From Escherichia phage vB_EcoS-640R1: a DNA stretch of 53,425 nt. This document shows, piece after piece, positions 12,863 through 53,425 of this stretch (its first letter is position 1; the number at the start of each line of letters is the position of its first letter). The position numbers were made by a program, and so were the translations under genes. Location: sequence record ON470612; one strand, 5' to 3'. The notes beneath the pieces were generated by a model that made no database searches, was not told where the DNA came from, and saw nothing but the letters and a program-made list of their open reading frames with translations.

Positions 12863-13028
12863 TCGAGTTCCACCTTCTTATTCATAAGGCGGGACACTTT
12901 CAGGATTTTGAATTTATTCAATTTTTTCCTTTCTCCAAAATCTCTCCAAAACGTTTCCCCAAAACTAGGCCACGCATTTTACAACACTTTTTTCCTGAGA
13001 TGGTGACGGATATTCCATATGGTGTTTG
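12859..13028. other. Prophage left junction (attL): last codons of potB fused to phage DNA
   Basis: Minus-strand frame ending in TGA overlapping the potC ATG reads ...SRLMNKKVELE*, matching the PotB C-terminus as recalled from memory, but has an in-frame stop 39 codons upstream and no PotB-like sequence beyond about 12895; the integrase gene is immediately adjacent. Confidence 0.5.
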
Positions 13029-17358: not shown

Positions 17359-17926
17359 TATCGCGCCCTCAACAATGAGTTTTGTGATGCGGTGCCTGGT
17401 GCCTCCAGGTGACGTTAACCAGTTAACAATTAACGCCGGATACAGAGAATCCACCCATAACACTGTTTTTGGTTTTAACTGTTCCGCGTGCGCTTAGCCG
17501 CATTCACCGCATCACAAAATTCACTTTAAAAAGGGCGGCAGAGCAGTCACGGAGTAAAACTGATACCGCCAAACGTCACCAGAAAATTGATAACAGAGGG
17601 CGTTGCAGTGGGGTTGTCACTTAAGCGTATGGTCAACCTGACAACCCGGTGTCCTCAACGGGGGAAGGAATAACCCCGCCATACTTACCGCCGCGCCATT
17701 TCGCGGATTGCCACAACCGGAAGCGCACGGTCGACGAAAATTTAACGACAGGCTATCTATGAACCAGCTACCTCGCCGTGCGCTTTCGCGTTATGGCCTG
17801 ACTTTTCAGGGAAATATCCTTTCAGTAAACTGTCAGTGCCGGATGCTCACCCGTGTCCGGCGCACGCACTCCACCTCACCCGTGGAGAACTCCTTAATTA
17901 CCAACCTTAGCTTCGTTGGTTATCTA

Positions 17927-18869: not shown

Positions 18870-19508
18870 TTAAATATCTTGTTGAATTTTAAAGCATACG
18901 CCCAATATGCAAGATAGATCATCCAGCATAATTGAAGGGTAGCGAGGATTCGTGGGGACTAAAAGAATATCCGGCCCTTCTATCTCCAGTTTACGAATGA
19001 CAGGTGTTGTGGTCCCTTTGGGTAAGGCAAGGACAATATTTCCTGGTTGTACGGTTCGATCGGGATCAACAAAAACTGTTGAACCATTTGGGATGGAAAC
19101 TCCCCCACCAGATGTTGACATACTGTCACTCTCTAGAACAACTGCAAAGGTATTGACCGGGATTTCTCCGACAAGCTGCACACAAGAGGTTATTGAGGAA
19201 TTTTTCATATAATCACTCCAGCTTGCTGCCTGCTGAAGTGATAGTAGCGGAACCGTTTTTATCGGCGGTAAAGATAGATCAAGCGAATCACCTGTATTTA
19301 ACTCTCCTCCATTAAGAAGCCAATTTTCGTTTACTTTCAATATTTTTGCCAGTGAACTTATGTAACGCGAGGACGGCGCTCCTCCACCGTTCATCCATTG
19401 ACTTACGGAGCCTTTTGATGCGCCAGTGCCATTGACAAGGTCTTTGCCTTTCAGGTTTAGCGCATGCATACGTTGGGTTATGCGTTCAGATATAGTTTGC
19501 TTGCTCAT
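18870..19508 (-). CDS. cI: CI-like prophage repressor (HTH plus S24 LexA-type peptidase domain)
   Basis: 212-aa ORF with N-terminal HTH (ISERITQRMHALNLKGKDLVNGTGASKGSVSQWMNG) and C-terminal autocleavage domain; divergent from the cro-like gene. Confidence 0.85.
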   Translation of the reverse strand: MSKQTISERITQRMHALNLKGKDLVNGTGASKGSVSQWMNGGGAPSSRYISSLAKILKVNENWLLNGGELNTGDSLDLSLPPIKTVPLLSLQQAASWSDYMKNSSITSCVQLVGEIPVNTFAVVLESDSMSTSGGGVSIPNGSTVFVDPDRTVQPGNIVLALPKGTTTPVIRKLEIEGPDILLVPTNPRYPSIMLDDLSCILGVCFKIQQDI

Positions 19509-22546: not shown

Positions 22547-22714
22547 TTTTGGTTCAACTAAATACAACGTCAGTTTTGAAGAATGGCATGAACTGTTAAT
22601 GGACTATGCAGAGTTACGTGGTGGCAGTGCTGCTGATGCTGAAGCATGGCGTGATGATTATGAAGCAGGAAAAACTCCGGTCGAAGCATATTGTGATGAG
22701 TGGGGCGATGAATG
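22538..22714 (+). CDS. Small acidic protein (58 aa), below ORF-track cutoff
   Basis: ATG at 22538 preceded by GAGGAAG; MADFGSTKYNVSFEEWHELLMDYAELRGG...; overlaps the previous stop. Confidence 0.4.
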
Positions 22715-22969
22715 AGCGAGGTTAATTATCAGGAAGGGCATGAAACGGCGGGGCAAGCAAAAACAGTGGCATGGCGATATCGCTACGTGAAAAAAAAGGC
22801 GTTACGGACTTTCAGGAGAAGTAGTGGTCTGGTGACTGGAAATATGTACCGAAAAAAGAGGATTGTAACGACAGGCCGAACTATGAAATTCAGGCCTTAT
22901 TCACTGCCCCGCCAGTCCCGGTTACATCAGAAGAACTGGTTAAAGCTGTGCACTTTTATGAACAACTAA
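22712..22969 (+). CDS. Doubtful ORF; competing frame carries a better-looking but amber-interrupted reading frame
   Basis: Track ORF translation is basic and low-complexity after the A8 run at 22790-22797; the frame from 22771 looks more protein-like but has TAG at 22822. Confidence 0.2.
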   Translation: MSEVNYQEGHETAGQAKTVAWRYRYVKKKALRTFRRSSGLVTGNMYRKKRIVTTGRTMKFRPYSLPRQSRLHQKNWLKLCTFMNN

Positions 22970-23198
22970 AACGCGAAAATCCACCAGCATCCGGAAACCT
23001 GATTACAGATTCCCAGATAAGGCAATGAGCTACCTGGCGCAGAACGGGCTGATAAGTATGGGGAATGTTTTACGATGAATATTTAGACTAAAGAGTTTGT
23101 AACGCTATGTAAGTGATTTTTTCTGGTTTAGATATTTATATGTTCGGCCAAATTGAGGTGTGTTTAAATGTAATTGCACATTGATTGTAGGAGGAATA

Positions 23199-23378: not shown

Positions 23379-23637
23379 ATACAGCGAACGCCATTGGTTT
23401 AGTTGGATATTTACTGTGCCGGACAAAAACGGTTTGCGGGGAAATCTTAGTTAAGTAGAATGACTGCGGGTGCTTGAGGCTATCTGTCTCAGGCATGAAC
23501 ACCAAAAGGCAGATAGAGAAAAGCCCCAGTTAACATTACGCGTCCTGCAAGACGCTTAACATTAATCTGAGGCTCAATCTATGAACGGCAAATCTAGGTT
23601 AGCCTCTTACGTGCCGAAAGGCAAGGAGAAGCAGGCT

Positions 23638-23793
23638 ATGAAGCAGCAAAAGGCGATGTTAATCGCCCTGATCGTCATCTGTTTAACCGTCATTGTGACG
23701 GCACTGGTAACGAGGAAAGACCTCTGCGAGGTACGAATCCGAACCGGCCAGACGGAGGTCGCTGTCTTCACAGCTTACGAACCTGAGGAGTAA
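23638..23793 (+). CDS. hokD: Hok/Gef-family type I toxin (HokD/RelF-like)
   Basis: MKQQKAMLIALIVICLTVIVTALVTRKDLCEVRIRTGQTEVAVFTAYEPEE: single TM plus conserved Cys/Tyr periplasmic tail typical of Hok; in-frame upstream extension from 23581; terminator downstream. Confidence 0.85.
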   Translation: MKQQKAMLIALIVICLTVIVTALVTRKDLCEVRIRTGQTEVAVFTAYEPEE

Positions 23794-26641: not shown

Positions 26642-26717
26642 GGCCCTTTAGCTCAGTGGTGAGAGCGAGCGACTCATAATCGCCAGGTCGCTGGTTCAAA
26701 TCCAGCAAGGGCCACCA
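26642..26717 (+). tRNA. tRNA with CAU anticodon (Met/Ile2-type, ileZ-like phage tRNA)
   Basis: 76 nt cloverleaf: 7-bp acceptor GGCCCTT/AAGGGCC, D-arm GCTC-AGTGGTGA-GAGC, anticodon loop CTCATAA, T-arm GCTGG-TTCAAAT-CCAGC, 3' CCA. Confidence 0.85.
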
Positions 26718-27054: not shown

Positions 27055-27258
27055 TGATGATTGTCTGGCTGCCGGAGAATTTGTTAAAAATTACATCGCA
27101 TGGTGAATCCCCCTCAGCGGCGGGGCATCTGGCAAAGTGTATGATCCAGAGAACATGCAAATTCAGTAGACAGGCTGAATTTACCGGGAGGCCCCTGGCA
27201 CCATGCGACAGACAGAAATTAGGCTATACTTCAGCCCCTCTCCGGAGGGGCTTTTCTG
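27055..27258 (+). ncRNA. Candidate structured RNA element, copy 1, ends in intrinsic terminator
   Basis: Shares conserved blocks with copy 2 (TTGTCTGGC..TTTGTTAAAAA..CGCATGGTGAATCCCCCT; GAATT(T/C)ACCGGGAGGC..GGCACCATGC; AGCCCCTCTCCGGAGGGGCT + T-run); alternative pairings of GCATGGTGAAT with ATT(T/C)ACC or CACCATG. Confidence 0.4.
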
Positions 27259-27445
27259 TGCAGGATGTGTCACAGTTTCCTGAATTCTGAGTACTGTCCT
27301 GTTACTCAGGGTGCTATATTTTCTGACGTGATGAAAGTCTGCCGGAAGGCGGAACGTATCGGAAATGACCCAGTAGAGAAAACGTTGACTCAGATACCGA
27401 TGCTGAGTTACCGGGAAACCGGCATCACATGACCGCTATCCTTCC

Positions 27446-27525: not shown

Positions 27526-27720
27526 ATTATTGTCTGGCCGGCGGGAAGTTTGTTAAAAAATTTCGCATGGTGAATCCCCCTGTGCGGAGGGGTAATCAGC
27601 GAGTAGGTATATGGGATAATCGCGGATTCAGGTGCTGGTACTGAATTCACCGGGAGGCACCCGGCACCATGCAATGGCACATAGCGCCACTCTCCAGCCC
27701 CTCTCCGGAGGGGCTGTTTA
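27526..27720 (+). ncRNA. Candidate structured RNA element, copy 2, ends in terminator-like hairpin
   Basis: Same conserved 5', 3' and hairpin blocks as copy 1, with a divergent central segment. Confidence 0.4.
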
Positions 27721-27750
27721 TATTGATTTTGTCAGATGTGAGTAAACTCC

Positions 27751-30499: not shown

Positions 30500-30793
30500 T
30501 TATTGTGAGCAATACACACGCGCTTCCAGTGGAGTATAAATGCCTAAAGTAATAAAACCGAGAAATCCATTTACGAATGTTTGCTGGGTTTCTGTTTTAA
30601 CAACATTTTCTGCGCCGCCACAAATTTTGGCTGCATCAACAGTTTTCTCCTGTCCAATTCCCGAAACGAAGAAATGATGGGTGATGGTTTCCTTTGGTGT
30701 TACTGCTGTCGGTTTGTTTCCAACAGTAAACGTCTGTTGAGCACATCCTGTAATAAGCATTGCCAGAGCGGCAGAAAACAACATTTTTTTCAT
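30500..30793 (-). CDS. bor: Bor-like serum-resistance lipoprotein
   Basis: MKKMLFSAALAMLITGCAQQTFTVGNKPTAVTPKETITHHFFVSGIGQEKTVDAAKICGGAENVVKTETQQTF... near-identical to lambda Bor; start at internal Met of track ORF. Confidence 0.88.
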   Translation of the reverse strand: MKKMLFSAALAMLITGCAQQTFTVGNKPTAVTPKETITHHFFVSGIGQEKTVDAAKICGGAENVVKTETQQTFVNGFLGFITLGIYTPLEARVYCSQ

Positions 30794-31318: not shown

Positions 31319-31669
31319 ATGCCCCCACGAATCCCACGCGCCTGCCGTAAGCGTGGATGTGCAGGTACAACCACAGACAGTTCTGGTTACTGCGATAAAC
31401 ATCGTGGCGAAGGATGGGTACAGCATCAACGCGGACTGAGCCGCCACCAGCGTGGCTATGGCTCGAAATGGGATGCCATACGTGCGCGCATACTGAAGCG
31501 TGATAATCATCTGTGTCAGAACTGCCTGCGCAATGGGAGAGCCGTTGAAGCCAGAACTGTGGACCACATCATTCCGAAAGCTCATGGTGGCACGGATGCA
31601 GACAGTAACCTGCAGAGTCTGTGCTGGCCCTGTCATAAAGCAAAAACAGCGCGCGAACGCCTCAATTGA
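31319..31669 (+). CDS. HNH endonuclease associated with terminase (HK97 gp74-like)
   Basis: Cys-rich N-terminus and HNH motif (DHIIPKAHGGTDADSNLQSLCWPCH); GGAG upstream; precedes terS/terL. Confidence 0.8.
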   Translation: MPPRIPRACRKRGCAGTTTDSSGYCDKHRGEGWVQHQRGLSRHQRGYGSKWDAIRARILKRDNHLCQNCLRNGRAVEARTVDHIIPKAHGGTDADSNLQSLCWPCHKAKTARERLN

Positions 31670-31797: not shown

Positions 31798-32295
31798 TTG
31801 ATAGGTAAAATCGATTATGTCTGGACNNNNNNNNNNNNNNNCCTGCATTTGATACGAGGTAACCCCTCAAAGCGGCCAGTTAAAGACTCCAAAAAAACCG
31901 CTAAAAAGGATGAAAAAGGTCTCCCTAAAATTCCGCAACATTTAGGGGCGCAGGGGAAGTACTGGTTCAGGCGAATGGCGGAAGAGCTGAATGCGGAAGG
32001 GATCATTTCTCAGCTCGATGCACGTGCGCTCGAGTTACTGGTGGAAGCCTACACCGAATACCGGCATCACTGCGAAATACTCGATGTTGAGGGTTATACC
32101 TACCGCACGGAAACGCAGAATGGCGATGTGCTGATCAAGGCACACCCGGCTGCTGCGATGAAGGCTGATGCCTGGAAGCGGATTCGGGCGATGCTTGCAG
32201 AGTTTGGTATGTCACCGGCAAGCCGGGCGAAAGTAAATACCGCCGGACCGGATGATGTTGATCCGCTGGCAGAGCTTTTAAAAGCGAGAGACTGA
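31798..32295 (+). CDS. Terminase small subunit (P27/HK97-type); 5' end uncertain because of a 15-N gap
   Basis: LHLIRGNPSKRP... family-like sequence; stop overlaps terL start; the ORF spans the N-run at 31827-31841. Confidence 0.65.
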   Translation: MIGKIDYVWXXXXXXLHLIRGNPSKRPVKDSKKTAKKDEKGLPKIPQHLGAQGKYWFRRMAEELNAEGIISQLDARALELLVEAYTEYRHHCEILDVEGYTYRTETQNGDVLIKAHPAAAMKADAWKRIRAMLAEFGMSPASRAKVNTAGPDDVDPLAELLKARD

Positions 32296-34052: not shown

Positions 34053-34210
34053 AACAGCTTATTACTGATATGACCGGGCTGATCGGTTTCGGTTTGCTCA
34101 CTGCTGGCGTTTATCTGTATGCAGGTCTGCCAGCGTCTCTGATGCTGTCGGGCTGTTTGTTGCTGCTTTATGCACTGGTAGTGTCCATGAGGAGAAAACA
34201 TGCTTCTTGA
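34051..34210 (+). CDS. Possible small membrane protein between terL and portal (below ORF-track cutoff)
   Basis: GTG-initiated 52 codons, VKQLITDMTGLIGFGLLTAGVYLYAGLPASLMLSGCLLLLYALVVSMRRKHAS; overlaps neighbours. Confidence 0.25.
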
Positions 34211-35426
34211 TGCTCTGTTTCGCAGTGAGTCTCTGGAAAATCCCTCGGTTCCGGTAACCGGAGAGGCCGCTGAGACGGATAATATTTTTGCCCGGGATGT
34301 GTATGTCAGTCCGGAAACATCCATGAAGCTGGCTGCTGTCTATGCCTGTATTTATGTTATTTCATCCAGTGTGGCTCAGATGCCCCTGCATGTGATGCGA
34401 AAAACGAATGAGCATGTTCAGCCTGCACGCGATCATCCGTTGTTCTGGCTCGTTCATGATGAACCTAATGCCTGGCAGACCAGCTATAAGTGGCGGGAAC
34501 TGAAGCAGCGTCATGTGCTGGGGTGGGGCAATGGTTATACGTGGGTAAAACGTAATCGTCGTGGAGAGGTTACCAGCCTTGAATGCTGTATGCCATGGGA
34601 AACCACGTTACTTAACACCGGTGGGCGTCATACTTACGGGGTGTATAACGAAGAGGGTGCATTTGCGGTAAGTCCGGACGACATGATCCATATCAGGGCG
34701 CTGGGAAACAATCAGAAAATGGGACTGAGCCCGATCATGCAGCATGCTGAAACCATTGGTATGGGAATGAGTGGCCAGCAGTATACCAGCGCCTTTTTTA
34801 ACGGTAATGCCCGTCCTGCCGGTATTATTTCTGTGAAAAATGAACTGAACGAACAGAGCTGGGGCAGGCTTAAAAATATGTGGCAGCGGGCGGTGACAGC
34901 GCTTCGCAGCCAGGAAAATAAAACCATGCTGTTGCCTGCGCAACTGGATTACCGCGCTCTGACAGTTTCTCCGGTGGATGCTCAGATCATTGATATGACC
35001 AAGCTGAACAGGTCGATGATTGCAGGGATTTTTAATGTCCCGGCGCACATGATTAATGACCTGGAAAAAGCCACATTTTCGAATATTACGCAGCAGGCGA
35101 TTCAGTTTGTTCGCTACACGATGATGCCCTGGGTTGCGAACTGGGAGCAGGAGCTTAACCGTCGCCTGTTTACCCGTACAGAACGGGCTGCCGGGTATTA
35201 CGTTCGTTTTAACCTCACGGGGTTGCTCCGTGGGACCCCACAGGAGCGTGCGCAGTTCTATCACTTTGCCATTACAGATGGCTGGATGAGTCGGAATGAA
35301 GCCAGGGCATTTGAGGATATGAACCCGGTTGACGGTCTGGATGAAATGCTGGTCAGCGTAAATGCAGCAAATCCGTTGAATAACTTTAAAGATACGAAAG
35401 GCAAAGAGGAAAAGAACGATGAATGA
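34200..35426 (+). CDS. Portal protein (HK97 family)
   Basis: 408-aa ORF; GAGGAG RBS; position between terL and prohead protease. Confidence 0.88.
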   Translation: MLLDALFRSESLENPSVPVTGEAAETDNIFARDVYVSPETSMKLAAVYACIYVISSSVAQMPLHVMRKTNEHVQPARDHPLFWLVHDEPNAWQTSYKWRELKQRHVLGWGNGYTWVKRNRRGEVTSLECCMPWETTLLNTGGRHTYGVYNEEGAFAVSPDDMIHIRALGNNQKMGLSPIMQHAETIGMGMSGQQYTSAFFNGNARPAGIISVKNELNEQSWGRLKNMWQRAVTALRSQENKTMLLPAQLDYRALTVSPVDAQIIDMTKLNRSMIAGIFNVPAHMINDLEKATFSNITQQAIQFVRYTMMPWVANWEQELNRRLFTRTERAAGYYVRFNLTGLLRGTPQERAQFYHFAITDGWMSRNEARAFEDMNPVDGLDEMLVSVNAANPLNNFKDTKGKEEKNDE

Positions 35427-36017
35427 CCGTGAAACGCGCTGTTACAGCGGGGAGGTGCGGGCGGAACAATATGATAATGCCCGACCCACATTCTGGGGTA
35501 TGGCTCGGTATTTAACAGTCGTTCAGAACCTCTGTGGGGATTTCGTGAAATCATCAAGCCGGGGGCTTTTGATGATGTACTGAATGATGATGTACGTGGC
35601 TTGTTTAATCATGATCCTAATTTCATTCTCGGACGAAGTTCTGCCGGCACATTGTCATTGTCGGTGGATGAACGCGGTTTACGTTATGACATTGTTGCAC
35701 CGGATACTCCGACTATTTGTGACCTGGTGCTGTCTCCAATGTTGCGTGGTGACATTAACCAGTCCTCGTTCGCGTTTCGTGTCGCCCGTGACGGAGAGAG
35801 CTGGTATGAAGACGACGAGGGGATTGTTATCCGGGAAATCACGCGCATTTCTCGTCTGTATGACGTCAGCCCGGTGACATATCCGGCCTATCAGGACGCA
35901 GACTCCGGTGTCCGCTCAATGAAAGCCTGGCAGGAAGCGCGGGCGAGTGGTGCGCTGAAGAAAGCTGTTAATGAACGAATGGCGCGTGAGCGCCTTTTGA
36001 CCCTTCTTAATGCATAA
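35419..36017 (+). CDS. Prohead protease (HK97 family), interrupted by an apparent -1 frameshift at a G4 run (35495-35498)
   Basis: N-terminal 26 codons (MNDRETRCYSGEVRAEQYDNARPTFW) from ATG 35419 after AGAGGA; family-like sequence continues in the other frame (GYGSVFNSRSEPLWGFREIIKPGAFDDVL...NHDPNFILGR...), which is the track ORF 35601..36017. Confidence 0.7.
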
Positions 36018-36031
36018 GGATACTACTGACG

Positions 36032-37249
36032 ATGAAACTTCATGAGATGAAGCAAAAACGAAACACCATTGCAAAGGATATGCGTGCACTGCATGAAAAA
36101 ATTGGTGATAACGCATGGACTGATGAGCAACGGGCAGAGTGGAACAGGGCGAAAGCTGAGCTGGATGCGCTGGATGAGCAAATCGCCCGTGAAGAAGAGT
36201 TGCGCCGTCAGGATCAGGCATATGTGGATGAGTCCGGGCCGGAAGAGCGCCAGAATAATGAGGCGGAGAACGGGAAAAAGGCGGTGGAAGAGAAGCGTGC
36301 TGCGGCATTTAACCGTTTTCTGCGTGCCGGATTTGCAGAACTGAATGCTGAAGAGCGTAATCTGATGCGTGAACTGCGGGCTCAGAGTGTAACAACGGAT
36401 TCTCAGGGCGGATATACGGTGCCCACGCAGATGCGTAACAAAATCATTGACACCATGAAGGCTTATGGCGGGATTGCCAGTGTGGCGCAACTTCTGACCA
36501 CATCAACCGGGCAGGATATCACCTGGTCAACGTCTGATGGCACGACTGAAGAGGGCGAACTGCTGGCGGAAAATACAGCCGCAACGGAACAGGATGTGAC
36601 GTTCGGGACCGCTATTCTGGGGGCTAAAAAGCTGTCATCAAAAATAATTCGTGTGTCCAATGAGCTGCTCCAGGACAGTGGGGTGGATATTGAATCTTAT
36701 CTGGCAAACCGTATTGCCCAGCGTATTGGTCGTGGAGAGGCAAAATATCTGGTTCAGGGGACCGGAACGGGATCACCGTTACAGCCAAAAGGGCTGGCAG
36801 CGTCGGTGACGGGAACCATCCAGACTGCAGCCTCTGCCGCTTTCACCTGGAAAGAAATGAATGCCCTGAAACATGCCATTGATCCGGCATATCGTGGTGG
36901 GCCGAAATACCGCTGGGCATTCAATGATGCCACATTGCAGACTATTGAAGAGATGGAGGATGGACAGAAACGCCCGTTATGGCTGCCGGATATTGCAGGC
37001 GGTACGCCGGCTACTGTGCTGGGGATCCCTTATGTTATTGATCAGGCTATTGACGGGATTGGTACTGGAAAAAAATTCATTTTCCTGGGGGATTTCAACC
37101 GCTTTATCATTCGCCGCGTTACTTATATGGAACTGAAACGTCTGGTTGAGCGTTATGCTGAGTTTGATCAGGTGGCATTTCTGGCTTTCCATCGTTTTGA
37201 CTGTGTGCTGGAAGATGTGGCAGCCATCAAGGCGCTCACTGGCAAATAA
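36032..37249 (+). CDS. Major capsid protein (HK97 fold) with N-terminal scaffolding delta domain
   Basis: 405-aa ORF, coiled-coil charged N-terminal ~100 aa then capsid domain; strong terminator downstream. Confidence 0.88.
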   Translation: MKLHEMKQKRNTIAKDMRALHEKIGDNAWTDEQRAEWNRAKAELDALDEQIAREEELRRQDQAYVDESGPEERQNNEAENGKKAVEEKRAAAFNRFLRAGFAELNAEERNLMRELRAQSVTTDSQGGYTVPTQMRNKIIDTMKAYGGIASVAQLLTTSTGQDITWSTSDGTTEEGELLAENTAATEQDVTFGTAILGAKKLSSKIIRVSNELLQDSGVDIESYLANRIAQRIGRGEAKYLVQGTGTGSPLQPKGLAASVTGTIQTAASAAFTWKEMNALKHAIDPAYRGGPKYRWAFNDATLQTIEEMEDGQKRPLWLPDIAGGTPATVLGIPYVIDQAIDGIGTGKKFIFLGDFNRFIIRRVTYMELKRLVERYAEFDQVAFLAFHRFDCVLEDVAAIKALTGK

Positions 37250-39542: not shown

Positions 39543-39928
39543 TGAGGATGGATGTGATGACTAAAAATATCCGTAATCTGGCACTGGCAACGATGTCGGG
39601 GTTTCGCCATAAAACCGTTGATGTGCCTGAATGGGAGGGAGCAACGGTTGTGTTACGGGAACCTTCTGCAGAAGCCTGGTTGCGCTGGCAGGAGATCGTT
39701 AAAGCAAAAGATGATGAGACACCGTTATCCGTTGCGGAGCGCGCCCGCCGAAATCTGGAGGCAGATGTTGAACTGTTCATTGATGTTCTGTGTGATACCG
39801 GACTGCAACCCGTATTTTCAGAGGATGATCGTGAACAGGTGATTGCCGTGTATGGCCCGGTGCATGCGCGGCTTCTTCGGCAGTCTCTGGAACTGATCAG
39901 TGATGCCGGCGAGGTTAAAAAAAAGTAG
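39542..39928 (+). CDS. Tail assembly chaperone (G-like)
   Basis: Acidic ~125-aa protein ending at the slippery run A AAA AAG; alternative start at 39557. Confidence 0.8.
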   Translation: MRMDVMTKNIRNLALATMSGFRHKTVDVPEWEGATVVLREPSAEAWLRWQEIVKAKDDETPLSVAERARRNLEADVELFIDVLCDTGLQPVFSEDDREQVIAVYGPVHARLLRQSLELISDAGEVKKK

Positions 39929-40230
39929 CGCTTCCGGGGATGCGTTTTCTGATGATGCTGGCGCTCAGGATGGGGCGCACATTGTCAGAGTTACGCCGGG
40001 AAATGTCCGCATCAGAAATCATGATGTGGGCAGAATTTGACAGGTTCAGCCCGCTGGGGGACGAACGGGCTGATTTCCGGGCTGCCCAGATTGTTTCAGC
40101 TATTTACGGTGCGCAGGGGGTCAAAGTGTCACTGAATGATGCGCTTCTTCAGTGGGAGAAGGAGCAGACAGAAGGCGCTTCAGATCCATTTGCCGGACTG
40201 GAAAACGCGCTTTTAATAGTGTCTCAGTGA
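39542..40230 (+). CDS. Tail assembly chaperone G-T fusion via programmed -1 frameshift at 39919-39925
   Basis: Slippery heptamer A AAA AAG immediately before the G stop; the -1 frame continues into ...VALPGMRFLMMLALRMGRTLSELRREMSASEIMMWAEFDRFSPLGDERADFRAAQIV... (track ORF 39940..40230). Confidence 0.75.
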
Positions 40231-49437: not shown

Positions 49438-50037
49438 ATGCGTAAAGTTTATGCAGCTATTTTGTCCGCAGCCATCTGTCTGGCCGTATCAGGTACGCCT
49501 GCATGGGCGTCTGAACACCAGTCCACACTGAGCGCAGGGTATCTTCATGCCCGTACGAACGTCCCCGGCAGCGATAATCTGAACGGGATTAACGTGAAAT
49601 ACCGTTATGAATTTACGGACACGCTGGGGCTGGTGACGTCATTCAGTTATGCCAATGCCAAAGATGAGCAAAAAACGCATTACAGCGATACCCGCTGGCA
49701 TGAAGATTCCGTGCGTAACCGCTGGTTCAGCGTGATGGCGGGGCCGTCTGTGCGCGTGAATGAATGGTTCAGCGCGTATGCGATGGCGGGTATGGCTTAC
49801 AGCCGTGTGTCGACTTTCTCCGGGGATTATCTCCGCGTAACTGACAACAAGGGGAAAACGCACGACGTGCTGACCGGAAGTGATGACGGTCGCCACAGCA
49901 ACACGTCTCTGGCGTGGGGGGCTGGCGTGCAGTTTAACCCGACCGAATCCGTGGCCGTTGATGTCGCTTATGAAGGTTCCGGCAGTGGCGACTGGCGCAC
50001 TGACGGTTTCATCGTGGGTGTCGGTTATAAATTCTGA
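49438..50037 (+). CDS. lom: Lom-like outer membrane protein (Ail/Lom family)
   Basis: 199-aa ORF with signal peptide and beta-barrel pattern ending ...GVGYKF; terminators on both sides. Confidence 0.88.
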   Translation: MRKVYAAILSAAICLAVSGTPAWASEHQSTLSAGYLHARTNVPGSDNLNGINVKYRYEFTDTLGLVTSFSYANAKDEQKTHYSDTRWHEDSVRNRWFSVMAGPSVRVNEWFSAYAMAGMAYSRVSTFSGDYLRVTDNKGKTHDVLTGSDDGRHSNTSLAWGAGVQFNPTESVAVDVAYEGSGSGDWRTDGFIVGVGYKF

Positions 50038-50101: not shown

Positions 50102-53100
50102 ATGGCAGTAAAGATTTCAGGTGTACTGAAAGACGGCACAGGAAAACCGGTACAGAACTGCACAATCCAGCTGAAAGCAAAACGTAACAGTACCACGGTG
50201 GTGGTGAACACGCTGGCCTCAGAAAATCCGGATGAAGCCGGGCGTTACAGCATGGACGTTGAGTACGGTCAGTACAGCGTTATTCTGTTGGTGGAAGGAT
50301 TCCCGCCGTCACATGCCGGGACCATCACCGTGTATGAAGATTCCCGACCCGGTACGCTGAATGATTTTCTCGGTGCCATGACGGAGGATGATGCCCGTCC
50401 TGAGGCACTGCGCCGTTTTGAACTGATGGTGGAAGAGGTGGCGCGTAACGCGTCCGCGGTGGCACAGAACACGGCAGCCGCGAAGAAGTCAGCCAGCGAT
50501 GCCAGCACATCAGCCCGTGAGGCGGCAACCCGTGCGACTGATGCTGCAGGCTCAGCACGTGCAGCCAGCACGTCAGCCGGACAGGCCGCGTCGTCGGCTC
50601 AGTCAGCGTCTTCCAGCGCAGGAACGGCATCAACAAAGGCCACTGAAGCATCAAAAAGTGCTGCCGCCGCAGAGTCTTCAAAAAGCGCGGCAGCCACCAG
50701 TGCCGGTGCAGCGAAAACGTCGGAAATGAATGCCGCAGCATCACAAAAATCTGCGGCCACATCTGCATCCACCGCGACCACGAAAGCGTCAGAAGCTGCC
50801 ACCTCAGCCCGGGATGCGTCGGCTTCAAAAGTGGCGGCAAAATCATCAGAAACGAGCGCTGCCTCGAGCGCCGGCAGTGCAGCTTCCTCGGCAACGGCAG
50901 CAGGAAATTCCGCGAAGGCCGCAAAAACGTCTGAGACGAATGCGGATAACAGCGCACAGGCGGCAGCAGACTCACAAACTGCATCGGCAAACTCCGCGAC
51001 AGCAGCCAAAAAATCAGAAACCAACGCGAAAAATAGTGAGGCAGCAGCAAAGGTCAGCGAAACCAACGCTAAAGCGTCAGAGAACAAGGCGAAAGAATAT
51101 CTCGACAAGGTCGGGGGACTCGTCAGCCCGATGACGCAATACGATTGGCCCGTTGTTACTGGTAATGAGTCTTTTTACATAAAGATCGCGAAACTTTCCG
51201 ATCCCGGAAGCGGCAATTGCCATGTAACGCTAATGGTTACTAATGCCGGTAACTACGGCTCCCCTTACGGAAACATTGACTTTATCGAGATCTCGGCGCG
51301 CGGTCTGCCTTCTTTGCTTAGTGCGGATAATGTTTCTCGTCATCTGAGTATACGCCGCTTAGGGTCAATCGGGCTGACCGATAACAACCAGATGCGTTAC
51401 GGCCTGGTTAAAGGTGACGGCTTTATTGAGGTTTGGGCCTTCCAGCGCGCATTTATCAACGGCGCAAAGGTTGCGGTGCTGGCGCAGACGGCACGCCCGG
51501 AATTATACATTCCAGACGGATTTGTTAAGCAAACCGCCGCGCCTTCTGGATATGTTGAAAGCCCCGTTGTAAGGATTTACGACCAGTTAAACAAGCCGAC
51601 TAAAGCAGATTTGGGTCTTTCTAATGCTATGCTTACAGGCGCTTTCGGTCTTGGCGGTAGCGGGATATCAACAAACGGCAAGATGAGCGATGTAGAGATC
51701 TTAAAAGCTCTGCGTGACAAAGGTGGTCATTTCTGGCGCGGTGATAAGCCGACCGGAAGCACGGCGACCATTTATAGCCACGGTTCTGGTATATTCTCGC
51801 GGTGCGGCGATACGTGGTCAGCGATCAATATCGACTACTCAACCGCGAAGATTAAGATCTATGCCGGCAACGATGCCCGGCTTAACAACGGGACTTTTAG
51901 CATCAATGAGCTATACGGCTCGGCAAACAAGCCGTCGAAATCGGATGTTGGACTTGGCAACGTAACTAACGATGCGCAGGTGAAAAAATCCGGCGATGTT
52001 ATGTCTGGTGATCTTGATATATTGAAAGAAACGCCATCTATCAGGCTAAAATCAGCAAAAGGAACCGCTCATCTGTGGTTCATGAACAACGACGGAAGCG
52101 AGCGCGGCGTTGTTTGGTCGCCTGAAAACAACGAATCACTTGGCGAAATCCACATCAGGGCGAAAAACACAAAAGGTGAATCAAGTGGTGATTTTATTGT
52201 TCGCCACGACGGGAGGGTTGAGGCCCGCAATCTAAAAATAACTTACAAAATCAGCGCAGCCACCGCAGAATTTGCAAACACAAGCACCAGTTCCGATAAC
52301 ACTACGGTAAGCATCAAAGGATCTCAGCATACGCCTTTGGTTTTAACGAGCAACAACACAATTAAAAACTTGTCCATTGGGTTTAAGGTTGATGATGTTG
52401 ATCAAAAATACCTGGGTATAGCTGGTGACGGTGATTTGTATTTTGGTAGTTATTCTGACCACACAAAAAACAGCAAAGTAATCACACAAGCAAAACTCGA
52501 TAGCGGGGTGACGGTAGGCGGTAAAACAACCTTTTCTGACTTTGCCACATTTAACGCAGGTATGGCGGGATCTATCGAGCCGGAAACCATTGACAACAAG
52601 ACTATTGATTTAAACGACTTGATCATTGCTAATACAGTGGCTGGATCTGTTAAATACTATCAATGCAAAACTGTTGCAGGTGGTGCATATATTACCAATA
52701 AGCCTGACGGCGTAAGCGGTAACTTTTTGCTACGTGTAGAATCTACTCGTAAAACTACGGGTTCAGATTATGCGATCATGCAAACGCTGATTGGCAGCGA
52801 CACAAAACGCATATACGTTCGCTTTGTTGTCAATGGAAACTGGACGGAGTGGAGTCAGGTAGTTGTTTCAGGATGGAATCAGGATGTAACCGTCAGGTCG
52901 TTAACCTCGACGACTCCATCAAAATTAGGCGGCGGGCGTGTTGATGTGCTGGGGAGTACGTCAGATTACAGTAGTATGAATTGTGCTGTGCGCGGTGTTG
53001 ATAGCACTGGAACCAATTCGGCGTGGTCGGTAGGCACATCAGAAAGCACAGGCAAAATGTTGTTCCTGAAAAACCACAGAAGCAGCGCTCAAGTGCTGTT

Positions 53101-53425
53101 AAATGGCGATGATGGAGCGGTTCAACTACTAAGTGGCACTGTTAACGGTGCTACAGCGCAGGCGCTAACCATCAACAAAGATGAGGTTAACTCAACTGCC
53201 GATTTAGTAATTAGAAAACAAACAGGGACTGGCAATCGTTTTGCTTTACTTAATTCAGGTAATTCAGAACTACCAGTTAGTATCAGGGTGTGGGGTTCCA
53301 GTACTCGACAAAACGTTTTTGAGGTTGGAACGTCTGCTGCGTATCTGTTTTATGCGCAAAAAACAACAGACGGGCAAAACCTTACTGAACCGCCCCGGGT
53401 TTCCTGGAGAGTGTTTTATCTGTGA
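50102..53425 (+). CDS. stf: Side tail fibre protein (Stf-like), complete; stop codon is the last triplet of the window
   Basis: MAVKISGVLKDGTGKPVQNCTIQLKAKRNSTTVVV... matches the lambda Stf N-terminus; long Ala/Ser/Thr-rich repeat region (about 50480-51100); AT-richer divergent C-terminal domain. Confidence 0.85.
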   Translation: MAVKISGVLKDGTGKPVQNCTIQLKAKRNSTTVVVNTLASENPDEAGRYSMDVEYGQYSVILLVEGFPPSHAGTITVYEDSRPGTLNDFLGAMTEDDARPEALRRFELMVEEVARNASAVAQNTAAAKKSASDASTSAREAATRATDAAGSARAASTSAGQAASSAQSASSSAGTASTKATEASKSAAAAESSKSAAATSAGAAKTSEMNAAASQKSAATSASTATTKASEAATSARDASASKVAAKSSETSAASSAGSAASSATAAGNSAKAAKTSETNADNSAQAAADSQTASANSATAAKKSETNAKNSEAAAKVSETNAKASENKAKEYLDKVGGLVSPMTQYDWPVVTGNESFYIKIAKLSDPGSGNCHVTLMVTNAGNYGSPYGNIDFIEISARGLPSLLSADNVSRHLSIRRLGSIGLTDNNQMRYGLVKGDGFIEVWAFQRAFINGAKVAVLAQTARPELYIPDGFVKQTAAPSGYVESPVVRIYDQLNKPTKADLGLSNAMLTGAFGLGGSGISTNGKMSDVEILKALRDKGGHFWRGDKPTGSTATIYSHGSGIFSRCGDTWSAINIDYSTAKIKIYAGNDARLNNGTFSINELYGSANKPSKSDVGLGNVTNDAQVKKSGDVMSGDLDILKETPSIRLKSAKGTAHLWFMNNDGSERGVVWSPENNESLGEIHIRAKNTKGESSGDFIVRHDGRVEARNLKITYKISAATAEFANTSTSSDNTTVSIKGSQHTPLVLTSNNTIKNLSIGFKVDDVDQKYLGIAGDGDLYFGSYSDHTKNSKVITQAKLDSGVTVGGKTTFSDFATFNAGMAGSIEPETIDNKTIDLNDLIIANTVAGSVKYYQCKTVAGGAYITNKPDGVSGNFLLRVESTRKTTGSDYAIMQTLIGSDTKRIYVRFVVNGNWTEWSQVVVSGWNQDVTVRSLTSTTPSKLGGGRVDVLGSTSDYSSMNCAVRGVDSTGTNSAWSVGTSESTGKMLFLKNHRSSAQVLLNGDDGAVQLLSGTVNGATAQALTINKDEVNSTADLVIRKQTGTGNRFALLNSGNSELPVSIRVWGSSTRQNVFEVGTSAAYLFYAQKTTDGQNLTEPPRVSWRVFYL

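Follow-up and report, generated by a model that had tools for sequence, protein, structure and literature searches.

Organization of the prohead protease locus

The window, i.e. the whole stretch of 53,425 nucleotides that was analysed (Escherichia phage vB_EcoS-640R1, sequence record ON470612), carries a lambdoid prophage whose integration site lies between potB and potC on an E. coli chromosome of the ST167 type. Between its portal and major capsid genes lies an HK97-family prohead protease gene whose reading frame is broken. The locus comprises the following features:

34200..35426, plus strand: HK97-type portal gene (TIGR01537 portal_HK97, 324 bits), the stop of which overlaps the protease start
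35419..36017, plus strand: HK97-family prohead (head maturation) protease pseudogene with a 1-nt deletion; the intact form has 600 nt and 199 aa
35419..35583, plus strand: ORF translated from the native start, 54 aa, made up of 21 native and 33 out-of-frame residues
35480..35482, plus strand: CCC run, the deletion site; the ancestral allele, kept in intact genes, is CCCC, where GCC CCG encodes Ala21-Pro22
35481..36017, plus strand: native frame 3' of the deletion, residues 22-199, holding the His65 and Ser117 codons
35495..35498, plus strand: GGGG run, where the initial annotation had placed the lesion; the same in intact genes and not the lesion
36032..37249, plus strand: HK97-type major capsid gene, 405 aa (TIGR01554 major_cap_HK97, 349.6 bits)

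The protease ATG at 35419 overlaps the portal stop codon (TGA 35424-35426) and is placed 9 nt after an AGAGGA ribosome-binding site at 35405-35410, both the overlap and the ribosome-binding site having been described in the initial annotation. From this ATG the frame reads MNDRETRCYSGEVRAEQYDNARPTFWGMARYL... and terminates at TGA 35581-35583; the premature stop had also been recognized, apart from a trivial offset in its position, which had been given as 35584. With respect to the ATG, the coding frame is shifted by -1 further downstream, i.e. one base is missing. Read one base back, the downstream frame is open from 35478, reads CPTHILGYGSVFNSRSEPLWGFREIIKPGAFDDVLNDDVRGLFNHDPNFILGR..., contains ...GYGSVFNSRSEPLWGFREIIKPGAFDDVL...NHDPNFILGR and extends, in agreement with the earlier description, up to the TAA at 36015-36017. 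Alignment with intact homologues gives a native protein with the N-terminus ...QYDNAPTHILGYGSVFN that reads ...EQYDNAPTHILGYGSVFN..., and with CCCC the intact protease is one continuous 600-nt ORF. Gene family, role and pseudogene status are already established, and a RefSeq/PGAP label exists: the identical sequence in the M217 chromosome is annotated as 'HK97 family phage prohead protease, frameshifted'.

The family assignment is based on the intact 199-aa allele, which equals the repaired window sequence and matches Pfam PF04586 Peptidase_S78 (139.4 bits, E 1.6e-40, cut-off 21) as well as TIGR01543 proheadase_HK97 (97.9 bits vs a cut-off of 59). A Pfam search with the 54-aa product gave no match and thus no protease domain, and a solved-structure sequence search with the intact protease returned a chance tubulin match only (E 0.55). 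The gene is located between the portal gene and a delta-domain capsid gene: the capsid protein, presumably the substrate of the protease, has an N-terminal extension of ~125 aa (delta/scaffolding domain), with its Pfam Phage_capsid domain beginning at residue 126, and no separate scaffold gene intervenes between the two genes. This order of portal, protease and delta-domain major capsid protein is common to HK97 gp4, while identity to gp4 is only ~30% and the protein has 199 aa here vs 225 aa in gp4. In the alignment, His65 falls on gp4 His65 and Ser117 on gp4 Ser114, both in invariant columns; following the HK97 literature, we take these two gp4 residues to be catalytic. The codons for His65 (CAT 35610-35612) and Ser117 (TCG 35766-35768) both lie 3' of the shift. 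Unlike HK97 gp4, the window gene is interrupted after codon 21 by the 1-nt deletion and does not encode a full-length protein. A functional Peptidase_S78/TIGR01543 member has a continuous ORF, but the frame is broken at 35480-35482, and the window gene is a pseudogene of the family and not a functional member.

Other features of the prophage

Besides the protease locus, the following features were recorded in the prophage:

12871-12884: 14-mer CACCTTCTTATTCA, candidate att core
17533-17584, minus strand: Rfam match
18870-19508, minus strand: 212-aa repressor-like ORF
22712-23028: second PGAP pseudogene
23468-23643, plus strand: Rfam match
26642-26717: tRNA gene, anticodon CAT
27068-27261, plus strand: Rfam match
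27537-27725, plus strand: Rfam match
30500-30793, minus strand: iss/bor
31827-31841: stretch of 15 N
39557-40230: tail assembly chaperone G/GT
49438-50037: lom
50102-53425 (window end): side tail fibre gene

The 14-mer is found just outside potC beside the integrase gene and, in M217, again at the potB 3' end, which is the far prophage end; given its small length, this candidate att core at the potB/potC junction might be a coincidental match. The 212-aa ORF combines an HTH_3 match below the Pfam cut-off with a Peptidase_S24 domain and resembles a full-length CI/LexA-like repressor, of which PGAP annotates the C-terminal 112 aa only, as 'LexA family protein'. The Rfam matches, all above the gathering score, comprise the DicF sRNA beside dicB, the sok antitoxin RNA of hokD and two STnc100 RNAs in tandem. 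ARAGORN calls the tRNA a tRNA-Met and PGAP (identical M217 gene) a tRNA-Ile, the latter implying a lysidine-modified CAT. The second pseudogene, a hypothetical protein labelled 'frameshifted; internal stop', is common to strain AR_0011, and the cargo genes iss/bor and lom are intact. The 15 N replace 19 nt of M217 and AR_0011 (CCCC.GAAAACCCCGCCACG) and are situated between an HNH endonuclease gene (31319-31669) and the small terminase gene (end at 32295), where an HK97-type cos site is expected.

In the tail region, G/GT contains the heptamer A AAA AAG (39919-39925) just before the G stop, and the -1 frame runs on for ~100 codons, a true programmed -1 frameshift. At 53386-53425, the side tail fibre gene meets the terminal repeat of an IS3-family (IS629-like) element; the M217 copy of this IS is interrupted by a group II intron (ltrA), with a 3' remnant of the tail fibre gene beyond. 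Since AR_0011 has the same IS insertion, the insertion is older than the protease deletion.

Position of the lost base

When the window was aligned with five intact homologues, a single gap was found, which falls in the C run at 35480-35482, with CCC in the window and CCCC in the intact genes. Over the first 200 nt of the gene there are no differences between the window, the M217 chromosome and the prophage record 733R4, and the intact gene of vB_EcoS-813R8 deviates over the same distance solely by one additional C, reading GATAATGCCCCGACC where the window has GATAATG-CCCGACC. The CCCC is likewise present in AR_0011, PhiR49_2 and coliphage Evi, an isolate from infant faeces (PMC10910852), all of which keep the GGGG located 13 nt downstream of the C run. 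In the protease-gene alignments with 813R8, AR_0011 and PhiR49_2 the C-run gap is the sole gap or difference. Apart from this indel, the intact alleles of AR_0011 (WP_000999828.1), 813R8 and PhiR49_2 are 99-100% identical to the window and that of Evi is 96% identical at the DNA level; all form a single 600-nt ORF with CCCC, in contrast to CCC in the window.

The initial annotation was right in its central statement that a single base lost from a homopolymer breaks the prohead protease and would leave a non-functional product, but it attributed the break to a G lost from GGGGG at 35495-35498. Formally, adding a G does give one long ORF; however, five residues of the resulting protein are wrong (RPTFW instead of the native PTHIL), and the N-terminus reconstructed in this way, ...NARPTFWGYGS, deviates from the native one. 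Both the repair and the N-terminus went wrong because the lesion site had been misplaced. The intact homologues have an extra C at 35480 and show GGGG, or GGGC in a Klebsiella phage. This Klebsiella homologue (79% nt identity) reads CTGGGCT at the position of the G run, i.e. GGG only, so that a five-G run is not a family feature, and a 42-mer with GGGGG found 0 matches among 5,426 complete E. coli genomes. The comparison with Evi also argues against a lesion in the G run: 3' of 35480 there are 22 substitutions, 21 of them at the third position of downstream-frame codons and the remaining one a synonymous CTG/TTG change. Three of these (35486, 35489, 35493) fall between the two runs, and as the changes are synonymous, functional phages translate the segment between the runs in the downstream frame. 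The probability that a G was lost is practically nil, and as judged from the alignments the lesion is a C4 to C3 change at 35480-35482 and not a G5 to G4 change at 35495-35498. This is of practical relevance, as a repair or primers designed from the G-run reading would yield a wrong protein.

Distribution of the CCC allele

For the allele counts we used 41/42-mer queries centred on the C run, so that each 28-nt megablast seed crosses the run. Among the 5,426 complete E. coli genomes, the CCC allele was present in 95 independent ones and the CCCC allele in 513. In every one of the 95 carriers it is single-copy and chromosomal, and the carriers come from many laboratories and from humans, dogs, a cat, a pheasant, sewage, seawater and feed. 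Exact copies of the 54-aa frameshift product were found on 549 public contigs (NCBI, ENA and Logan, using a 15-billion-protein collection), including Illumina assemblies. Besides, CCC is present in the three GenBank 'phage' records 733R4, 716R1 and 640R1, which are PHASTER predictions from HiSeq/SPAdes assemblies, and the short-read data are therefore in agreement.

These data bear directly on the possibility that the gene is really intact and that this one record contains a homopolymer sequencing or assembly error. A short homopolymer does belong to the class of sites where long-read assemblies make indel errors, but a run of three or four bases is too short for a systematic error site, and CCC recurs in complete genomes across many laboratories, hosts, countries and years as well as in short-read assemblies. 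The allele also follows lineage, as ST167 carriers have CCC vs CCCC in the ST167 strain AR_0011. An artefact would be confined to few assemblies and one platform and would show no phylogenetic pattern, which is not what we found. With 95 complete genomes and 549 contigs carrying the same allele, we reject a sequencing error, to which we assign an extremely small probability. From the two options of the initial annotation, a sequencing error or an inactivating mutation, it is the inactivating mutation that is supported.

Recoding and split-gene expression

A broken frame might still be functional if the ribosome or the polymerase were able to bridge it, i.e. if a -1 frameshift or transcriptional slippage within 35481-35583 gave enough protease for a viable prophage. 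Both frames are open for ~100 nt, the protease is required at a lower copy number than the capsid protein, and the allele has been kept in a successful clone with the remaining prophage almost unchanged. The layout also resembles the lambda-like tail chaperone G/GT, where two overlapping frames and a -1 shift are likewise needed for the long product. In G/GT, however, a conserved in-phase slippery heptamer is present and the two-frame layout is conserved among phages, whereas the protease split lacks such a heptamer and is not seen in functional phages that are related. Scanning 35419-35583 for an in-phase slippery heptamer X XXY YYZ revealed none, the longest run being a G5, while the true programmed G/GT site of the same prophage has the canonical in-phase A AAA AAG. 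The initial annotation had named GGGG in intact homologous phages with a two-frame arrangement as evidence against a lesion; intact homologous phages, Evi included, do carry GGGG, but within a single ORF. A single ORF is present in the 513 E. coli genomes, Evi, PhiR49_2 and the Klebsiella phage. As this is the arrangement of related phages that are functional, the split into two frames is a derived and not a conserved state. Finally, persistence of the allele is what one expects of a neutral lesion in a repressed prophage. Taken together, recoding is very improbable.

A second way to retain function would be separate expression of the downstream part as a protease, namely as a 138-aa ORF starting at TTG 35601. 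This ORF keeps the catalytic His and Ser, matches the Peptidase_S78 profile at positions 55-159 and has been named 'head maturation protease' by some annotators. It lacks, however, the first third of the domain and with it I25, G27, Y28, S30-N33, I45, I46, P48-F51, L55 and R60, which are invariant between this family and HK97 gp4. Initiation is an additional obstacle: none of the possible ATG, GTG or TTG starts of the overlap zone is preceded by a Shine-Dalgarno sequence, the downstream frame offers its first canonical start at TTG 35601, which lacks one as well, and the three ATGs directly 3' of the premature stop (35584, 35587, 35590) are all in the wrong frame. We therefore regard a split but functional protease as extremely improbable, too. 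The disrupted gene, which belongs to a well-known family and lies in a widespread E. coli prophage, is a case of ordinary prophage decay, neither a sequencing error nor a recoding signal.

Predicted consequences for head maturation

In HK97-type assembly, the protease is co-assembled in the prohead and cuts off the capsid delta domain, which permits expansion and DNA packaging. In the window, translation from the native ATG would leave the native frame after Ala21 and halt at 35581-35583, giving a 54-aa peptide that would lack the whole Peptidase_S78 domain including His65 and Ser117. As an HK97-type delta-domain capsid needs the protease, we predict that head maturation fails in this prophage; without a cognate protease provided in trans, it would form immature proheads only and would produce no infectious particles. 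It is thus very probable that the prophage carries an inherited 1-bp CCCC to CCC deletion in the prohead protease gene and, as predicted, has lost head maturation. Lost protease activity and arrested head maturation are what we infer from the lesion; spontaneous frameshifting at a low level, or a related prophage that complements the defect, would still be compatible with the sequence, and a second homologous place exists in a few carrier genomes.

Open reading frames are retained for the integrase, the 212-aa HTH+S24 repressor-like protein, the terminase and the lysis and tail functions, except for the side tail fibre gene, where the IS3-family insertion might still restrict the host range. 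With the remaining prophage largely intact, the protease lesion is plausibly its decisive structural defect. We also considered whether the 'phage' records 733R4 and 716R1 are derived from virions and hence from viable phages, but rejected this because they are PHASTER predictions from Illumina assemblies. The corresponding induction experiments were performed on mixed lysates, in which individual phages were not resolved (bioRxiv 10.1101/2022.06.29.498070). Both records are consequently uninformative on viability. Given a true mutation, PHASTER-type 'intact prophage' calls for the ST167 element are probably wrong with regard to viability; the 'intact' records affected are GenBank ON470607 and ON470621.

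Lineage of the deletion

The window differs from M217 by three SNPs over 53.4 kb, plus the masked stretch of 15 N. Every carrier of the CCC allele that is typeable from the literature, 15 in number, belongs to ST167 (PMC6392093, PMC7193042), and the ST167 carriers include M217, Sanji, ECONIH6, AR_0149, AR_0150, AR_0151, AR_0162, WCHEC005237, CRE1493, CREC-532, CREC-629, SCEC020007, 51008369SK1 and AR435. AR_0011 is an ST167 strain, too, but from another branch, characterized by a K30 capsule. An identically located prophage of the same kind is present in its chromosome, and every neighbouring gene encodes the same RefSeq protein, but its protease is intact (199 aa, WP_000999828.1) with CCCC. 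Over 37.9 kb, the AR_0011 prophage and the window are distinguished by two SNPs and the C deletion. Since AR_0011 is ST167 and so similar despite its CCCC, the deletion arose recently within ST167. The CCC allele is shared by a large branch of this clone, and the 95 carriers probably go back to a single origin with later inheritance.

What our analysis adds is the correct lesion site, the evidence that the allele is real and inherited, and its assignment to a position inside ST167; beyond correct annotation, the significance of the finding is little. Nevertheless, the single-base deletion distinguishes the majority of ST167 genomes from those of the AR_0011 branch and might be used as a lineage marker. 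It is conceivable, but unlikely, that the protease was lost early and became fixed in the globally disseminated, largely NDM-carrying ST167 branch by selection, and not as a neutral change. If this were true, the deletion would represent a selected domestication step in which an otherwise near-intact prophage was disarmed while its iss/bor and lom cargo was kept, and it would provide a clean single-base marker of the NDM-rich ST167 branch.
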